11,046 nucleotides of DNA from Nitrosopumilus sp. (lineage in GTDB: Archaea > Thermoproteota > Nitrososphaeria > Nitrososphaerales > Nitrosopumilaceae): the NCBI GenBank assembly GCA_965218695.1, contig CBDCLR010000002.1, positions 1 to 11,046 on the forward strand. Reading direction: 5' to 3'. Each line of letters begins with the position of its first letter. The stretch's first letter is position 1. The position numbers and the translations under genes were made by a program. Below the pieces are notes generated by a model that was not told where the DNA came from, made no database searches, and was given only the letters and a program-made list of their open reading frames with translations. Positions 3,455 through 11,046 of the stretch are shown here, piece after piece.

Positions 3455-3518
3455 GGCTCTGGTAAATTCTAGTGATCTCTGTCGTTTACTGTTCAAAAGT
3501 GTGTTTTTGGATCTTCTC
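3455..3518 (+). repeat. Truncated copy of the GGCTCTGG element long end
   Basis: GGCTCTGGTAAATTCTAGTGATCTCTG…TGTTCAAAAGTGTGTTTTTGGATCTTCT matches 7494-7556. Begins on the base after the mazF stop. Confidence 0.85.
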
Positions 3519-3594: not shown

Positions 3595-3786
3595 CGTTTT
3601 GCGGTTCTTTAAGAGGATGTTTGGCAAACATCTGTACTCGCTCAAGTGGAAGAACATGATCCAGGAGGTCAGGATCAAAGTGGCCACGTACAACAAGCTG
3701 ATAGACATGGAGGCAGGCACGGCGTAGCACAGTACACGCATGATCCGTGCATGTCCAAGTCCAGTAGGATGGATTATGCAACAGAC
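3595..3786 (+). mobile_element. IS5-family right-end remnant (second copy)
   Basis: FFKRMFGKHLYSLKWKNMIQEVRIKVATYNKLIDMEAGTA* followed by IR GGATTATGCAACAGAC (3771-3786). Inverted homologue of 2273-2460. Confidence 0.75.
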
Positions 3787-5273
3787 TAGGCGTACCAGTT
3801 CTCTTGCATTGGCGGGTGCCAGACCGCGAGTTTTACAACTCTTATACGAGCGCGCCTCAGGAGTCATGATGGGTGCAATACCGGCATTGATGGTATTGGT
3901 AATCGGATTGGTGGCAGCCGCTGCCATGCTTGCAGACCCCGTCCATGCGACGCCGCCCTTATTGGGAGATGCGCCCGCGATGCGCATATCAAACCTGCCC
4001 AACATAAACGAGACTGCGTTTGTAGAAATAACATACACGGACGTTTTCCTGTTCGACGCATACCCTCCGTCCAGAGGGTGGAGCGTAAGTCCGAATCTGG
4101 AGATTGTTGATTCCTACGGCGTGCCGTACAGGCCAGTATATGACTCGGCAGCGGACAATCTCAGAAGACACATGCATGCCGCTCATACGCCGCTAGAACG
4201 CGGAGAGTCAATAACATACAACATCGAGATCAGGGCCGTAAGCGAGGGTCGGGCCACGATTGCCGCCTGGGGACACGTGGATACGGGTCACATCGTACTG
4301 TATCTAGATTCTTATCACACCATGCTTTATGACGAATACAGAAGGCTGCATCCGGAGCCGCGTGCCCCTCCCCCGCAGCCCAGAGACGATGGCGAGGGGC
4401 CACGTTACATACCGCTGACAGAGGAACAGAGTCAGGCGCTGAGCAGAGAGCAAGAAATCGATAGCACCATGGGCTCCATTGCCGCACACATTCAGAGGGA
4501 AGGGCATGCCGCATCTGAGGCCGTGGATTTTTTCATAGCCGGAACCCGGGCCTTTACCATGCCGCAGATTCAACACATGCTGGACCGGGCGGGATTTGCA
4601 GGCCATGATGTGAACGCGGCGCTCTCACCAGGCAGGCAGCTGCAGATGCAGATACCCACAGACCAGGTGCAGTGCCGGAACGAGATGCTGCTGGTGCAGT
4701 CGCCATCCGGGAGGCCCGCCTGCGTCTTTGGCGCATCGCTGGAAAAGCTTGAGCGGAGGGGGTTTGTCCTCCTGGATACCGTACGAAACTGGTCGTCCAT
4801 CTGCCCGACAGAGCCATCTGCGGCATCCGTCTATTCGGAATCAAGGGGGACGCCGCCCAGGATCTGCATGTCCAACCTCCCAAGCGTAGGCGAGACTGCG
4901 ACTGTAAAAATAGGATACACAAACGACCAACCAATCAGTACCGCGGGACGGCAGGAACGATCCTATCCGGGATGGCAGCTAAGTCCGAACTTTGAGATCG
5001 TGGACTCCCACGGCATGCCATACAGGACAGTGTACCATCCCGGGACGGACACCGTCATAGACTACAGGCACGTCTCGGACATGCATCTGGAAAGCGGGGA
5101 ATCGATAACCTACGACATCGAGGTAAGGGCCGTAAGAGAGGGTCCGGCCATGATCACCGGCTGGGGACACTTTAGGGAGGATGCCGGCATCATGCTGTAC
5201 CTGGACTCCGCGGAGACCATGTTTTATCAGGAGCACAGGGATCTGCATCCCGAGGCGTATCTGAGGGATGCAG
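3595..5273 (+). repeat. Right arm of ~1.7-kb inverted duplication
   Basis: Aligns with the reverse complement of 786-2460, with no indels visible in the coding part. Confidence 0.95.
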
Positions 5274-5293
5274 GATTGATGTGGACCCCATAA
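3866..5293 (+). CDS. Secreted/surface protein with two Ig-like repeats, copy B (~475 aa)
   Basis: Start is ATG 3866 after TTATA (3842-3846), with a signal peptide and the same architecture as copy A. The last residues (LMWTP*) are contributed by an IS3 end. Confidence 0.85.
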   Translation: MMGAIPALMVLVIGLVAAAAMLADPVHATPPLLGDAPAMRISNLPNINETAFVEITYTDVFLFDAYPPSRGWSVSPNLEIVDSYGVPYRPVYDSAADNLRRHMHAAHTPLERGESITYNIEIRAVSEGRATIAAWGHVDTGHIVLYLDSYHTMLYDEYRRLHPEPRAPPPQPRDDGEGPRYIPLTEEQSQALSREQEIDSTMGSIAAHIQREGHAASEAVDFFIAGTRAFTMPQIQHMLDRAGFAGHDVNAALSPGRQLQMQIPTDQVQCRNEMLLVQSPSGRPACVFGASLEKLERRGFVLLDTVRNWSSICPTEPSAASVYSESRGTPPRICMSNLPSVGETATVKIGYTNDQPISTAGRQERSYPGWQLSPNFEIVDSHGMPYRTVYHPGTDTVIDYRHVSDMHLESGESITYDIEVRAVREGPAMITGWGHFREDAGIMLYLDSAETMFYQEHRDLHPEAYLRDAGLMWTP

Positions 5294-5418: not shown

Positions 5419-6513
5419 TGGTGACACGTCAAAGTTTTGCCTGATTTTGACTCACCAACCGAAATGTTTCTAGATCTCAATCTGCTGGGTCGGCTATGGA
5501 CGAAACAGACTGGGAAGGATTCAAGAAAGCGTATCGGCAGGAAAAGGATCCCAGAGTACGGGCGCGAATGCTTGCAGTATGCATGGTTCATGTACGGAAA
5601 AGAAGCGTAGAGGACACTGCCGACCTCCTCATGCAGTCGCCCGACTGGGTACGATCTGGATTCGAAGGTACGACGGAGGCCTTGACGGCCTCTTGGACCT
5701 TCCCAGATGCGGCAGGCCAAGGAGCATTCCAGCATCTACACTCAACAGGATAATTTTCGATCTTGGCAGTTCAAGAATCACTCCCGTCATGCTACAGCAG
5801 GTCATGCACGAAAAGGCAGGCAGAAAGCTGCACATAACATACGTCAGAAAGATCATGCGCCGGCATGGCCTCTCCCCGAAGGCGTCACAGAAGATCCATA
5901 TCAGGAGAGCCAACGGCAAGACTGTAAAAAATTGGCAGCATGACATCAAAAAGTGGATTTCACGCATGGAAAACGAGGGATTCGTCGTGGTCATGGAGGA
6001 CGAGGCGTTTTTTGTGCATGACGCGGCAACAGGACGCAAATGCTGGCCGCCCGTGGCAAGCCCGGTAACGTGCCCCATACCGGAAGCCACAGGAAGGTCG
6101 CAGCATACGGATCGATTGCAAGGGACGGGAGGCAATTCTTCCGAACCTATGACTGGTTTAACGCAGAGACCCTTGCCAGATACCTGAAGGATTTGCAGGG
6201 ACATTTTGGAAGGGTTACCGTGATAACGGACGGGGTCTCCCCGCATCGGGCACAACTGGTCAGGCAACTGTTGAGGGAAAACAGAAACATCAGAATCAGA
6301 CACTTCCCCCGGGGCTTGCCATATCTTAACGCAGTGGAAGAATGCTGGCACCAAGGAAAACGCATTCTGCCTGTCTCCGAGTATTACAGAACGTTCTCCG
6401 ACCTATGCCGTGCCGTGTCCACGCATTGCCGAACGGCCAGATTCAACTTGGAGCTGTTAAAATATGCAAACCGAAAAACGAAATTGATCTCTAAAGACTT
6501 TTGATCGTCACTA
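5419..6513 (+). mobile_element. IS630-family insertion sequence (~1.1 kb), flanked by TA
   Basis: TA at 5417-5418 and 6514-6515. Imperfect IRs TGGTGACACGTCAAAGTTTT and (reverse complement) TAGTGACGATCAAAAGTCTT. Confidence 0.85.
5496..6504 (+). pseudogene. IS630 transposase, two frameshifts (~5652, ~6045)
   Basis: Three successive frames: HTH (EKDPRVRARMLAV…), then GLDGLLDLPRCGRP…MEDEAFF, then VITDG..PH…PYLNAVEECW (DDE triad). The second break lies inside the catalytic domain. Confidence 0.85.
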
Positions 6514-6642
6514 TACTGCTTCAACGTGGTAGACATATTCACCAGAAAATGACTGGCCTACAAGTTCGACACCATGACCACCAACAATATCGCCATCGAG
6601 TCGATAGTGGAGGCTGTCGCAGTGGCCAAGCCGGATTGCACG
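6514..6642 (+). pseudogene. IS3-family integrase-core (rve) fragment
   Basis: Reading from the TA: YCFNVVDIFTRK*LAYKFDTMTTNNIAIESIVEAVAVAKPDC, matching the Y...V.D.F.R…AY integrase-core strands. In-frame TGA at 6550-6552. Confidence 0.65.
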
Positions 6643-7404: not shown

Positions 7405-7493
7405 GGCTCTGGTAAATTTAGGTGATCCCTGTAAGTCACTGTTCAAGAAGTGATCTAGACTGGGCTGAGGATCACCTGAATTTAACAGCAGGG
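7405..7493 (-). mobile_element. Divergent member of the GGCTCTGG element family, left piece (interrupted)
   Basis: GGCTCTGGTAAATTTAGGTGATCC…TGTTCAAGAAGTGATC…GGATCACCTGAATTTAACAGCAGG. Appears to continue at 10953. Confidence 0.7.
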
Positions 7494-7646
7494 GGCTCTG
7501 GTAAATTCTAGTGATCTCTGCCGTTCACTGTTCAAAAGTGTGTTTAGGATCTTCTTCAGATTCAATCCCGTCGCATTTCATCACGGTGTTCAAAAGTGTG
7601 GTGCCTTCCACAAGACTGTTCAAAAGTGAGCTGAGCTGTACTTGCA
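7494..7646 (+). repeat. GGCTCTGG element long end, copy 1
   Basis: Terminal GGCTCTGGTAAATTCTAGTGATCTCT plus TGTTCAAAAGTG at 7529, 7587 and 7617. Confidence 0.9.
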
Positions 7647-7848
7647 GGCTCTGGTAAATTCTAGTGATCTCTGCCGTTCACTGTTCAAGAGTGTGTTTTA
7701 GGATCTTTTCCGGATTCAATCTCGCCGCATTTCGTCATGGCGTTCAAAAGTGTGGTGCCTTCCACAAGGCTGTTCAAAAGTATGTTGAGTCGCTCTTGCA
7801 CCTTGGTGGTAAATTTTGGTGATCTGATCACCAAAATCTACCAGAGCC
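7647..7848 (+). mobile_element. MITE-like GGCTCTGG element, copy 2 (tandem with copy 1)
   Basis: Starts GGCTCTGGTAAATTCTAGTGATC and ends GATCACCAAAATCTACCAGAGCC (imperfect 23-bp TIR). No coding capacity. Confidence 0.8.
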
Positions 7849-8380
7849 ATATCGGAGACCGCGCCCAGCGTGATCTGCACCAGCACGATGCAGTTTGCTG
7901 ACCAAACATTCGAGGAGAGCGTCGAGAAATCCGGCCTGATCGTCGTTGGAACCGTGGTGGACGTGGGAATCAAGGTATTCCCGGAGGACATCATGGACGT
8001 GGACGAGGACGGCAACGAGTACGTCCTGGAGCACAACGGGATCCCGAGGGCGGAGGTAACGGTTCAAATTCAGGAGGTACTAAAGGACGATGTAGGCCTG
8101 ACTTCTGAGACCGTGACATTCTATGACGACGTGAACGACGCGATCGGGGAAAGCGACAGCCAAAAGGCCAAGTACATCTCGCAATACGCCATAGACTACC
8201 AGAAAGGCGACAGGGGACTCTTCCTCATAGACAACGACAGGGGGCTGAGCATGCTCGGCTACTCCTCGTACTACGATACTGGAGGGAAAGGAGACCATAA
8301 CCACGGAATTGGACAAGCTTCTCGGGAAGGAGTCGCTTGACCTGTCTGAAGCCAAAGAGATCGCGCAAAACGACGGTTAA
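7849..8380 (+). pseudogene. Acidic hypothetical protein, 5'-truncated and frameshifted
   Basis: Frame is open right up to the element end at 7848 (ISETAPSVICTSTMQF…). After YSSYY (~8275) another frame continues ILEGKETITTELDKLLGKESLDLSEAKEIAQNDG* to TAA 8378-8380, just before a T-tract. Confidence 0.65.
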
Positions 8381-8390
8381 AAACCACCAA

Positions 8391-8402
8391 CTCTCTTTTT
8401 TT
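8391..8402 (+). terminator. Archaeal oligo-T terminator
   Basis: CTCTCTTTTTTT about 10 bp after TAA 8380. Confidence 0.5.
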
Positions 8403-8510
8403 CATGATACGCTAATGGATTTCATGCACATCCGATGATGCCATGCATCAGGCGCTAGTTCAATCCAGATTGAAGATTTTGTTATTACGATCTGACGTGC
8501 ATACAACGCA

Positions 8511-9644
8511 ATGAATAGAACAACAGCGACGATCTTTGTAGCAACACTGGCTGTGGGATTGATTGGATCTACCTTTGCGCTGTCGCAAGACATTATGGCG
8601 CAGGGCGGCATCGGGCAAAACACCATAAAATCCGAACCGCCGACATTCGACACTCCTGACATACAGCGGATGACAGAGATTGTGCGACAACTACACGACG
8701 AGGCGACGACAGAATCCGAGAGGGCGGAACTGATTGAAGAAGCACAACAGATCAAAAGATCTCACGAGCAAAGGTTCGACAGCACGGCAAGACAGGCAAT
8801 GCTGGACAAGAAAGACGTGATAGTCGAGTACATATCCGGCAACCTGAATCTCAGGTCGTTTGACGACTTCACGTCAGAGTTTCCAGTCTCCGGCCTGTAC
8901 GTGGACAGCGCCACCAACAAGCTGGTAGTCAACGTCTTCCCGGACGAATTCGACAGCAACGCAGAAAGCGTGCTGCAAAAGGTCAGGGAACTCGTGGGCA
9001 TGGACATCGACATCACAGTACAGCCGATGCCGGCAATAACCCCGCAATGCTCCCAAACAGGAAACTGCGAACCGGCCCAAGGGGGAGTCAAGATCTCAAC
9101 GGCGGAGGGCGCATGCAGCATGGGCTTCAAGGCAATGCGCAACGGTGACATCGGCTTTGTGACTGCGGGACACTGCACCGACGGCAGCACGGACGCGACC
9201 GTAGGCCAGCCAAACTACTACTACTGGGATCACATCGGTTCGGTTACTGCCAACAGCTACAGGTTCGGAAGCTCGGCTGACGCAATGTTCGTGGAGGCAG
9301 ACGAGAGCATCAGTGACAGGATATACAACAACATCGATATCAACTGGGCAGGAAGCACGGGATTGTTGGACGGGGTCCACATGGAAGGGCACACCTCGAA
9401 GGGAGTGTTAGGAGTCGTGGTGGACGTCTCGTACAGCTCCTACGTTGACAGCGTCTGGATAAACGACATGGCAGCGACGACCTATGATGGAGACGGTGGC
9501 GACAGCGGTGGACCCGTATACGGCTACATCCCGTCAACGAACTTCAAGGGAACACACGTAGGATCTAACGGAATAATATCGACGTCCTCGAAACAGGCAA
9601 ACATACTAGATGAGATCTCCGGCTTGTCTTGGAGATTCACCTAG
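8511..9644 (+). CDS. Secreted S1-family (chymotrypsin fold, alpha-lytic/streptogrisin-like) serine protease with prepro region
   Basis: Signal peptide and long pro-region. Catalytic motifs CSMGF…FVTAGHC (His), ADAMFV (Asp) and GDSGGP (Ser). Confidence 0.9.
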   Translation: MNRTTATIFVATLAVGLIGSTFALSQDIMAQGGIGQNTIKSEPPTFDTPDIQRMTEIVRQLHDEATTESERAELIEEAQQIKRSHEQRFDSTARQAMLDKKDVIVEYISGNLNLRSFDDFTSEFPVSGLYVDSATNKLVVNVFPDEFDSNAESVLQKVRELVGMDIDITVQPMPAITPQCSQTGNCEPAQGGVKISTAEGACSMGFKAMRNGDIGFVTAGHCTDGSTDATVGQPNYYYWDHIGSVTANSYRFGSSADAMFVEADESISDRIYNNIDINWAGSTGLLDGVHMEGHTSKGVLGVVVDVSYSSYVDSVWINDMAATTYDGDGGDSGGPVYGYIPSTNFKGTHVGSNGIISTSSKQANILDEISGLSWRFT

Positions 9645-10163
9645 CCTTTTTTTTAAATACAGCACCGCCAATCCCGCTATGACGACGACCAGCGGGTAAA
9701 CCAGCGGGTCTACTGACCGTACTTGGGGAGTTATGTGGCCGCCTACCTGTGTCACTTGGAGCATGTCAACCAGAAAGTAAGACAGCGCGGCAGACGCCCC
9801 CACTGCTGCAAACTTTACCGTCCTCTTGAACAGCTTCTTCAGGGCACCCTCGCTTTCCGTCCCCTCTGGCAGCACCAGGATGCCCGGATGTACCCTGAAA
9901 AACCTGTGCTCCTTTCCCTTCTTGGTGATCCTCCCGGTTCTTACCTCGACCAGCCCGATCGACTCCATCTTTTTGAGGTGGTGGATGACCAGGTTGGCCC
10001 TGAGGTTCAGCCTCCTTGCAATGTCGTTCGTGTAGCTCTCCTTATGGATTAGCAGCCTTATGATATCCCTGCTTGACTTGTTGCCAAGCAGTTCGCCCAA
10101 AATCTTCAGCTTGTCGTCATCAGAATAAAAGACATTGATCCTGCCAAACTCGTCATCTACCAT
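9606..10163 (-). CDS. Membrane-anchored ArsR-type winged-HTH transcriptional regulator
   Basis: ELLGNKSSRDIIRLL….YTNDIARRLNLRANLVIHHLKKMESIGLV winged HTH, plus two C-terminal hydrophobic segments (FAAVGASAALSYFLV; LVYPLVVVIAGLAVLYL). TTATTATAAG about 20-30 bp upstream. Confidence 0.85.
   Translation of the reverse strand: MVDDEFGRINVFYSDDDKLKILGELLGNKSSRDIIRLLIHKESYTNDIARRLNLRANLVIHHLKKMESIGLVEVRTGRITKKGKEHRFFRVHPGILVLPEGTESEGALKKLFKRTVKFAAVGASAALSYFLVDMLQVTQVGGHITPQVRSVDPLVYPLVVVIAGLAVLYLKKRLGESPRQAGDLI
9645..9654 (+). terminator. Oligo-T terminator of the protease gene
   Basis: CC followed by T8 immediately after TAG 9642-9644. Confidence 0.5.
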
Positions 10164-10360
10164 GGTTGTTGGAATAGCTTTGCTTATAATAAGCAGATCT
10201 GGGGTTCCGCATGATTCTCTGGTGACGTCTGGGACTGAGGCAAGCGGCCGGCACGCACCGTTATATATCTCCTGTATGTGTTCACGTCGTGCCTAATTTC
10301 GTTCACTCGGGGGTAAATTTTGCTTAAACCACAGATCCAAATAGGATGACGATTTAGGCC

Positions 10361-10603
10361 GGCTCTGGTAAATTTTGGTGATCTCGGCCGTTCGCTGTTC
10401 AATAGTGTGTTCTAGGATCCCCTCCAGATTCAATCCCGCCGCATTTCGTCACGGTGTTCAAAAGTGCGGTGCATTCAACAAGGCTGTTCAAAAGTGAGCT
10501 CGCTCATGTTTGCACCTTGGTGGTAGATTTTTGTGATCTCGGTCCATTCTTTTCTTGACCCTGGTAAATTTTGGTGATTTGATCACCAAAATCTACCAGA
10601 GCC
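10361..10603 (+). mobile_element. MITE-like GGCTCTGG element, copy 3
   Basis: GGCTCTGGTAAATTTTGGTGATC…three TGTTCAA boxes…two internal TIR-core copies…GATCACCAAAATCTACCAGAGCC. Confidence 0.8.
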
Positions 10604-10754
10604 GCAGGCCTCATAGGGTACAGGAAGAGCGGCGGCAAGATCATCACTCAGCCAAACTGCCACAAATGCAGGGCAGGGCTGTCCAAAAGCCCTAAAAAAC
10701 GCACGGGGGCAAACCGCAAAAGGATGGCAAAAAGATCCGTTCTCATGGGCACGA

Positions 10755-10952
10755 TCCAGAAAAGATCGAACTGAGATCACGAAAATCTACCACCAAGGTG
10801 TAAGTATAGCTCGGCTCACTTTTGAACAGCCTTGTGGAGGGCATCACACTTTTGAACACCATGACGAAATGCAACGGGATTGAATCAGGAGAAGATCCTA
10901 AAACACACTTTTGAACAGTGAACGGTAGAGATCACTAGAATTTACCAGAGCC
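10755..10952 (-). repeat. GGCTCTGG element long end, copy 4 (inverted)
   Basis: Reverse complement of 7494-7646 / 10361-10557. Three CACTTTTGAACA boxes. Ends GATCACTAGAATTTACCAGAGCC. Confidence 0.9.
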
Positions 10953-11015
10953 CAGCAGGATCCGCAGCTCACATTTGAACACCGGGCCAGGACGGATCAC
11001 GACTTTTGAACGGCA
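10953..11015 (-). repeat. Divergent GGCTCTGG-family element, right piece
   Basis: CAGCTCACATTTGAACA and GATCACGACTTTTGAACG boxes about 30 bp apart, colinear with boxes 2-3 of the family end. Confidence 0.6.
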
Positions 11016-11046
11016 GAACGGCGCCGACGAGAACCGCAGAAAACCA

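Follow-up and report, generated by a model that had tools for sequence, protein, structure and literature searches.

Inverted repeat arms and a target-site duplication around a probable non-autonomous cargo transposon in a Nitrosopumilus genome

Introduction

Whether a stretch of DNA that encodes no transposase has moved as one piece, and by means of which enzyme, is the question raised by contig C3 of a Nitrosopumilus sp. genome (GenBank assembly GCA_965218695.1, contig CBDCLR010000002.1). The entire contig (11,046 bp) was analysed and is called the window here; other contigs of this genome are likewise given as C with a number. The unit of interest spans 7494-10952 (3459 bp), and its inverted arms enclose 2.5 kb of unrelated genes. 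The original prediction, made from the DNA letters alone, described a transposase-less cargo unit built from transposable elements of the miniature inverted-repeat kind (MITEs) and mobilised in trans. Here, we report that the unit is most probably a non-autonomous cargo transposon, either a mobile insertion cassette or a MITE-flanked composite, that was moved as one piece by a transposase encoded elsewhere.

Inverted ends and target site of the unit

The two ends of the unit are terminal inverted repeats of the insertion sequence (IS) type, with the 26-nt sequence GGCTCTGGTAAATTCTAGTGATCTCT exact at 7494-7519 on the plus strand and at 10927-10952 on the minus strand. No match to this sequence is expected by chance (0 in 200 shuffles). 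Outside these two positions, exact copies in the window start at 3455 and 7647, and a copy with three mismatches starts at 10361. The similarity continues into the arms, where 7493-7545 and 10901-10953 are 98% alike over 53 nt and the next blocks, 7543-7646 and 10799-10902, are 89% alike over 104 nt. BLAST aligns 7493-7671 with 10953-10773 at 88.4% over 181 nt. The ends and inverted arms that had been predicted are thus real, far beyond chance; the arms measure about 180 nt and are 88% alike.

The outer left arm (7494-7646, plus strand) opens with its 23-nt terminal inverted repeat at 7494-7516; the 130-nt core that follows contains three copies of a 12-mer box, TGTTCAAAAGTG. It has no inner end and is joined head to tail to a complete repeat copy of 202 bp (7647-7848, plus strand). 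The outer right arm (10750-10952, inverted, minus strand) has its terminal repeat at 10930-10952 and carries three such boxes; it also lacks an inner end, and its homology reaches 10670 in one paralogue (C1:520629-520913). Fourteen boxes were counted in the window against 0.07 expected, with three per arm at fixed offsets. A further complete copy of 243 bp lies inside the unit (10361-10603, plus strand) and closes with a palindrome at 10557-10603. The cargo is bracketed by a partial and a complete copy on the left and by an arm without inner end on the right, with another complete copy in the interior. Also inside the unit is an end fragment (75-85 nt, at 10264-10348, no strand assigned) of the commonest IS of the genome, with 87-90% identity to more than 35 ends of a 1526-bp IS that has GTAAGTGTTCACG ends. 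A solo arm fragment of 64 nt, composed of the end and the first box, is found outside the unit at 3455-3518 on the plus strand.

The unit is flanked by CAGCAGGG on the left (7486-7493) and CAGCAGGA on the right (10953-10960), which are identical at 7/8 positions and differ by one G-to-A substitution in the right copy; no strand is assigned to either. These flanks belong to the two halves of an interrupted target element, a repeat of about 245 bp from a sister subfamily that we name MITE-B. Its left part (7405-7493, plus strand; identified by BLAST and direct reading) shows 94% identity to C8:2163-2251 and 88% to C4:25645-25557, and its right part (10953-11046, plus strand, up to the contig end; identified by BLAST) shows 86% identity to C8:2244-2337 and 90% to C4:25564-25478. 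On both paralogues, the matches of the two halves share exactly 8 bp (2244-2251 on C8 and 25557-25564 on C4). Uninterrupted paralogues are present at C8:2163-2407, C4:25405-25645 and C6:24221-24424, each with a single CAGCAGGG at the insertion spot. They read ...GATCACCTGAATTTAACAGCAGGG (also written ...AATTTAACAGCAGGG) and then directly T(T/C)(C/T)GCAGCTCAC, whereas in the window an identical left part is followed by the 3459 bp and only afterwards by CAGCAGGA-TCCGCAGCTCAC. Because three uninterrupted paralogues hold one copy at the same spot, the flanking 8-mer, which had been predicted as target-like, is a true target-site duplication, and the unit landed within another small repeat. The locus thus presents a filled site, with the paralogues standing in as the empty site.

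A genome-wide comparison of the flanks gave the same picture. Among 45 pairs of plus and minus ends no more than 12 kb apart, flank identity above 5/8 was found only for the window unit (7/8) and for C1:39290-40581 (8/8). In a control of 878 unlinked end pairs, one matched at 7/8 and none at 8/8; the flank match in the window is not due to chance. No flanking duplication was found for the inner copies 7647-7848 and 10361-10603, in agreement with what had been claimed for them.

Other units with the same architecture

Eight units of this architecture were identified in all, three in the genome of the window and five in the congener G002, and their arms are inverted in every case. C1:39290-40581 (1292 bp) combines a plain left arm with a complete inverted copy at its right end, between flanks that both read CCAATCTG (8/8); its sole gene encodes a 195-aa membrane protein. 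The ends of C8:2135-4665 (2531 bp) are of the sister subfamily, and the unit is flanked on either side by TGCATGAGC (9/9, the ninth base being ambiguous). Its left end is more diverged and was missed by the script, so that this unit stands outside the result of the pair test. The five units of G002, of 1.2-4.8 kb, come from 10 fetched regions only and each have 8/8 flanks. They measure 4789 bp (duplication GTAATTTT), 3470 bp (AGTCCGGC), 4744 bp (TGATTTGG), 3414 bp (CCCAAGGA; nested within the 4744-bp unit) and 1248 bp (CATGTCTG). All eight duplicated 8-mers are different, a variety that staggered cuts at arbitrary targets would yield.

The cargo of the other units includes a HEPN protein with a nucleotidyltransferase, an ABC ATPase, a PAPS reductase, TnpB with UbiA and UbiE, a 133-aa open reading frame (ORF) and small ORFs. 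The only gene common to two units belongs to a nested 1607-bp IS, which is 100% identical in both and has its own boundaries and is therefore regarded as a later guest. Since the units otherwise have no gene in common, they are considered non-autonomous. Together with the uninterrupted paralogues, the seven further units with 8-bp duplications (one 9/9) bear out the earlier claim that two ends mobilised about 3.46 kb. The original prediction holds in this respect because uninterrupted homologues of the target exist and other insertions of the family show 8-bp duplications.

Several related loci were observed in passing. The G002 unit L029 1093-5881 also holds TnpB. A 4.6-kb unit at C1:2386415-2390994 has GGTTCTGTTAACTYATC... 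ends and a perfect 8-bp duplication, TGAATTAT; two nested IS aside, its sole gene encodes a 399-aa TnpB-like protein. From these two loci it follows that TnpB rides as cargo in elements with DDE-type ends. At C1:1562826-1565123 (L013), a 375-aa housekeeping-type gene lies between a repeat copy and a solo palindrome with no flanking duplication; read by eye and without a family search, its product is presumably aspartate-semialdehyde-dehydrogenase-like.

Cargo genes

Three cargo ORFs lie between the arms, and none has a transposase family match in Pfam or NCBIfam. ORF 1 (7870-8340, plus strand; 156 aa, GTG start) has no Pfam or NCBIfam match of any kind. ORF 2 (8511-9644, plus strand; 377 aa) encodes a protein like S1 serine proteases of the streptogrisin/alpha-lytic type with a long N-terminal region, as indicated by phmmer against PDB. 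Residues 191-340 match streptogrisin B (E 0.002) with the TAGHC and GDSGGP motifs aligned, and a weak match to the alpha-lytic prodomain falls below the Pfam cut-off. ORF 3 (9606-10163, minus strand; 185 aa) encodes an ArsR-type winged helix-turn-helix (HTH) protein whose C-terminal part has two hydrophobic segments. Its matches to HTH_20 and HTH_5 pass the Pfam cut-offs, and the NCBIfam ArsR/SmtB matches stay below theirs. ORF 3 is read as a membrane-anchored regulator because of the hydrophobic stretches seen in its translation. The predicted content of the unit, a protease and a membrane-anchored regulator without transposase, agrees with these readings.

The check proposed earlier, whether the cargo occurs at other loci, gave a negative result for this genome, in which BLAST found no second copy. 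Relatives of the protease occur in 5/60 other genomes of the genus at no more than 36% identity, and no donor locus for it was found among those 60 genomes. The 2.5-kb cargo is present in assembled contigs of three studies with 3-5 differences.

Repeat family of the arms

About 20 copies in the genome make up the repeat family to which the arms belong. The full short form, exemplified by the 202-bp copy at 7647-7848, opens with the 23-nt end GGCTCTGGTAAATTYTRGTGATC; next come the 130-nt core and an internal end-like 23-mer (CTTGGTGGTAAATTTTGGTGATC), which a single base separates from the opposite end. As a result of this order, the copy closes with a 47-nt palindrome (7802-7848 in this case), and such 47-bp palindromes are also found solo in the genome. 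The head-to-tail joins, such as the one at 7646/7647, may be explained by recombination between a terminal end and the internal end-like 23-mer. No Rfam match was obtained for the window.

The family was detected in 4/41 genomes searched, the own genome counted. The congener G002 has 32 matches, G007 has the palindromic end only, and G018 has a single marginal 21-nt match (E 6e-4). Two collections were further scanned, once each, with exact patterns. In the genome contigs, the 23-nt end occurs at 24 loci, all but one in Nitrosopumilus sp. or Cenarchaeum sp. records, and no transposase lies between the ends at these loci. In the metagenome contigs, 25 loci were obtained, mostly lone matches within ordinary genes, with no autonomous element among them. 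Passages of a review (PMC10969869) name MITEs from Sulfolobus, Halobacterium, Haloquadratum, Desulfurococcus and 'several other archaeal genomes'. Our literature search (MITEs, Thaumarchaeota, sponges) found no description of such repeats in Nitrosopumilaceae-type archaea. The kind of element is known, and the repeat family is, as far as this limited literature search goes, new in these archaea.

Proposed movement of the unit

The movement of the unit may be pictured as follows. One repeat family supplies both of the inverted arms, which measure about 180 nt, have a 23-nt end and three boxes apiece, and enclose the cargo. A DDE-type transposase made elsewhere would have bound the two outermost ends, and everything between them would have moved as one piece and been inserted via a staggered 8-bp cut into another small repeat. 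We infer the action in trans, the DDE chemistry and the role of the boxes as protein-binding sites. What the DNA itself shows, and what the proposal draws on, are the ends with their 8-bp duplication, paralogues that serve as the empty site, further units of the same architecture around other cargo, and an interior free of any transposase.

Four observations weigh against this proposal. Firstly, the search for an autonomous element with these ends came out negative: they are absent from the roughly 40 repeat families of the genome, and among its end pairs with up to 5 mismatches there is none with a matching transposase in between. With the two collection scans included, a cognate autonomous IS was not obtained, nor was the transposase that had been sought between such ends.

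Secondly, the short single copies and the 47-bp solo palindromes show no duplication, with all short plus/minus pairs at 5/8 or less, which is odd if the same enzyme moves them. Copies can be bounded exactly by the ends, as in 7647-7848 and C9:6559-6760, which are 99.5% identical over 202-203 nt and unrelated beyond. Decay does not explain the missing duplications, because flank matches of no more than 5/8 contrast with copies that are themselves 75-90% alike. Exchange of flanks by recombination among copies, or a different mode of spread for single copies, is possible. A few cross-matches at 7/8 (the left flank of C3:10361 with the right flank of C9:6760, and C1:1563027 with C1:39281 and C1:40581) give a weak hint of such exchange and are too few for a conclusion. 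The predicted MITE-built nature of the unit may accordingly fit its architecture better than its history.

Thirdly, an empty allele at this locus would read ...AACAGCAGGG joined directly to TCCGCAGCTC, and the short contigs assembled from read data yielded no such locus-specific allele. A joint 7488>10956 that skips 3467 nt (3459 + 8) occurs in two runs; it probably derives from the paralogues, as its sides are only 24-26 nt long. The contig depths of the cargo relative to the left flank vary between runs, and contig depth is not usable as a measure. The empty site foreseen by the original prediction was therefore recovered in the form of paralogues and not as an allele of the locus. Finally, with its 7/8 duplication and arms just 88% alike, the insertion is not recent, and the movement proposed is a past one.

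Candidates for the transposase and other explanations

Two families, IS6 and IS1595, had been linked to the ends by the original prediction. In the ISfinder classification, IS1595 elements leave 8-bp duplications, and those of the ISPna2 group have GGCnnTG ends. A tentative but serious candidate for the mover is an IS1595-family transposase that has since been lost; the arms would then be the termini of an IS1595-type element that underwent internal rearrangement and carries passenger genes. When an intact IS1595 gene of a related genome served as query at the protein level, three short IS1595 relics were detected in the genome, without an intact gene. Two of them start at a common terminus, GGTTCTGTTAACTTAT(A/C)GGCACC, which is joined directly to the last ~50 C-terminal codons of the transposase and matches the 23-nt end of the repeat at 16/23 positions by manual count. 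These internally deleted relics are located at C1:452491-452642 and C1:747074-747259 and have the terminus in common over 25 nt. In addition, the related genome L052 has repeat copies with an intact IS1595 gene some 90 bp away (Pfam E 8e-34, NCBIfam 160 bits), and the GGCTCTG tips and 8-bp duplications of the units agree with the IS1595 features given above. However, the L052 gene sits outside the neighbouring end and not between two ends, and G002 has five perfect duplications yet no match to PF12762 (DDE_Tnp_IS1595, 0). IS1595 copies with defined ends, from two other genera, terminate in GGGAATTAT(A/C)GTGAT, and none of 30 IS1595 loci scanned has a relic-type or repeat-type end, save for neighbouring repeat copies in L063. 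The genome of the window has no PF12762 match and no IS1595 transposase between such ends.

Alternatively, the mover could be one of the long IS6-like transposases of the genome, with zinc-finger or SWIM N-terminal domains, including single-copy genes without ends of their own; we consider this conceivable though on the unlikely side. Intact IS6-like genes are found at C1:1109864-1111000, C4:458-1783 and C9:37930-39186 and in six copies of a 1697-bp IS. This IS (e.g. C1:35519-37215 and five further copies) encodes a 404-aa SWIM/zinc-finger transposase between ends of about 58 nt. The 18-nt GGATCTTCTCCAGATTCA is found in each of its two ends and recurs within the arms of the repeat, as well as in the ends of C1:2255829-2260054. 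An IS6-like copy of G007 ends in GGTTCTGTTGCATCTTAGTGATA, with a 16/23 match to the end of the repeat by manual count. According to passages of PMC7986276, IS6 elements produce 8-bp duplications, which the unit fits, and have GG tips with cTGTt and caaa motifs in a repeat of 14-20 bp. The window end GGCTCTGGTAAAT fits these tip motifs in part, and the GGCTCTGTTCAAAT of the sister subfamily fits save one missing base.

Against an IS6-like mover, the multi-copy 1697-bp element duplicates 9 bp and not 8 (5/6 copies here and 2/2 clear cases in G002), and its tips differ (GGTTCTCC). The flanking copies of IS6-type compound structures are directly repeated (PMC7986276, in the passages cited), whereas the arms of the unit are inverted. 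No inverted repeats were found around C1:1109864 or C4:458. These two genes encode proteins of 379 and 442 aa with SWIM and zinc-finger domains, and a tRNA-like sequence lies beside one of them; the genes may have been domesticated or may belong to a larger element. The 1697-bp element is thus weakened as a partner by its 9-bp duplication and is retained because of the common 18-nt motif.

Other partners were rejected. For IS630, the 339-aa HTH and DDE_3 gene in the C8 unit belongs to a nested 1.1-kb IS with TATAGTG ends, and the decayed copy at 5453-6515 of the window is of this type too. For ISL3, PF01610 has 0 matches in 4 genomes. IS families of the genome that make 8-bp duplications have unrelated ends (GTAAG..., GTATG..., GTAAT... 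and AACTTTG...). The region C1:520629-528165, considered as a broken autonomous copy, contains only nested IS elements and a TnpB fragment. IS1595-type and IS6-like enzymes therefore remain candidates with similar odds, with room for an enzyme absent from these assemblies. The predicted link to IS6 or to IS1595/ISPna2 stands in the length of the duplication and lacks such a transposase between these ends.

A rather improbable extension is that the arm of about 200 nt is a free-standing 'transposon end module', which would spread by recombination or by targeted insertion without duplications. Facing pairs of such modules would make the DNA between them transposable, and the driving enzymes would come from end-less IS6-like or IS1595-like transposase genes that the host retains. 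It is very improbable that the unit is autonomous, with an unannotated protein as a new kind of transposase. The 156-aa ORF without family match could be such a protein, but the seven other units carry wholly different genes, none of them with a homologue of this ORF, and the window cargo is found nowhere else in the genome. Scarcely credible, and refuted by the comparison with the paralogues, is a coincidental 7/8 match between independently inserted copies with nothing moved as a unit. Copies do crowd the region, and the left flank forms the tail of a degenerate end that belongs to a neighbouring repeat, but the three paralogues of that repeat run on from a single CAGCAGGG straight into the sequence found after 10960 in the window, and seven other units have perfect flanks.

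Relation to known elements

The preferred reading, a non-autonomous cargo transposon moved from elsewhere, was compared with four known systems. MIC231 of the Bacillus cereus group is an example of a mobile insertion cassette. Such cassettes are defined, in a passage of PMC3129680, by IS ends, passenger genes, the lack of a transposase and movement presumed to occur in trans. The unit resembles them in its IS-type inverted ends, target duplication, unrelated passenger genes and missing transposase, with the enzyme presumed to come from elsewhere. In contrast to the cassettes, its genome has no cognate IS with the same ends, and its own ends are arms of about 180 nt with three subterminal boxes, often complete small repeats or 47-bp palindromes. 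Unlike that of MIC231, the host is a Nitrosopumilaceae-type archaeon.

The MITEAba12 composite is said to be a MITE-flanked composite transposon of bacteria. As in such composites, the cargo of the unit is bracketed by two inverted non-autonomous repeat copies with one duplication round the whole. The differences are that single copies here have no duplication of their own and that one arm of a unit often lacks an inner end, which argues that the arms are not simply two independent insertions.

Siguier et al. reportedly described, in 2009, IS1595-family elements with passenger genes as 'transporter IS'. The unit shares with them an 8-bp duplication, a GGCnnTG-like tip, passenger genes and relics with a related terminus in the genome. 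It differs in that no IS1595 transposase lies within any unit and none is intact in the genome.

The pseudo-compound transposons of IS6/IS26, as passages of PMC7986276 portray them, are similar to the unit in their GG tips and 8-bp duplication, in that two copies enclose the cargo, and in the frequent lack of a duplication at copies. By contrast, the arms of the unit are inverted and transposase-free, and the resident IS6-like element duplicates 9 bp.

Genomic setting

The genome of this ammonia-oxidising archaeon (2.63 Mb in 9 contigs, 52.8% G+C) abounds in mobile DNA. Repeats of at least 500 bp make up 461 loci and 635 kb, about 24% of the genome. Dozens of IS families were observed, many with 20-30 full-length copies and one with up to 78 repeat intervals, and one IS630-type transposase has more than 100 tblastn matches in the genome. 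In the window itself, 783-2393 and 3666-5276 form a 1.6-kb inverted duplication, 93-94% alike. Each of its arms has an internal tandem duplication of ~890 nt and a gene for a protein of 490-517 aa, for which a WING-49 domain was the sole family match, and the 1.27-kb spacer contains the solo arm fragment 3455-3518. At 5453-6515 lies a decayed IS630-type element with HTH and DDE_3 in different frames. It is only 67-69% identical to the many active IS630-type copies of the genome, which are of the 1.1-kb class with TATAGTG ends.

Significance

The unit at 7494-10952 offers a clean, internally controlled archaeal case of passenger genes moved by borrowed transposon ends. Cargo units are always flanked by a duplication and single copies never, which poses a concrete puzzle of mechanism. 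If the arms are indeed end modules, symbiotic ammonia-oxidising archaea would own a standing system that mobilises arbitrary genes, such as those for proteases, toxin-antitoxin pairs, TnpB and transporters. That the eight units of the two genomes each carry a different cargo suggests a repeat family by which accessory genes, those of the defence type included, are reshuffled.

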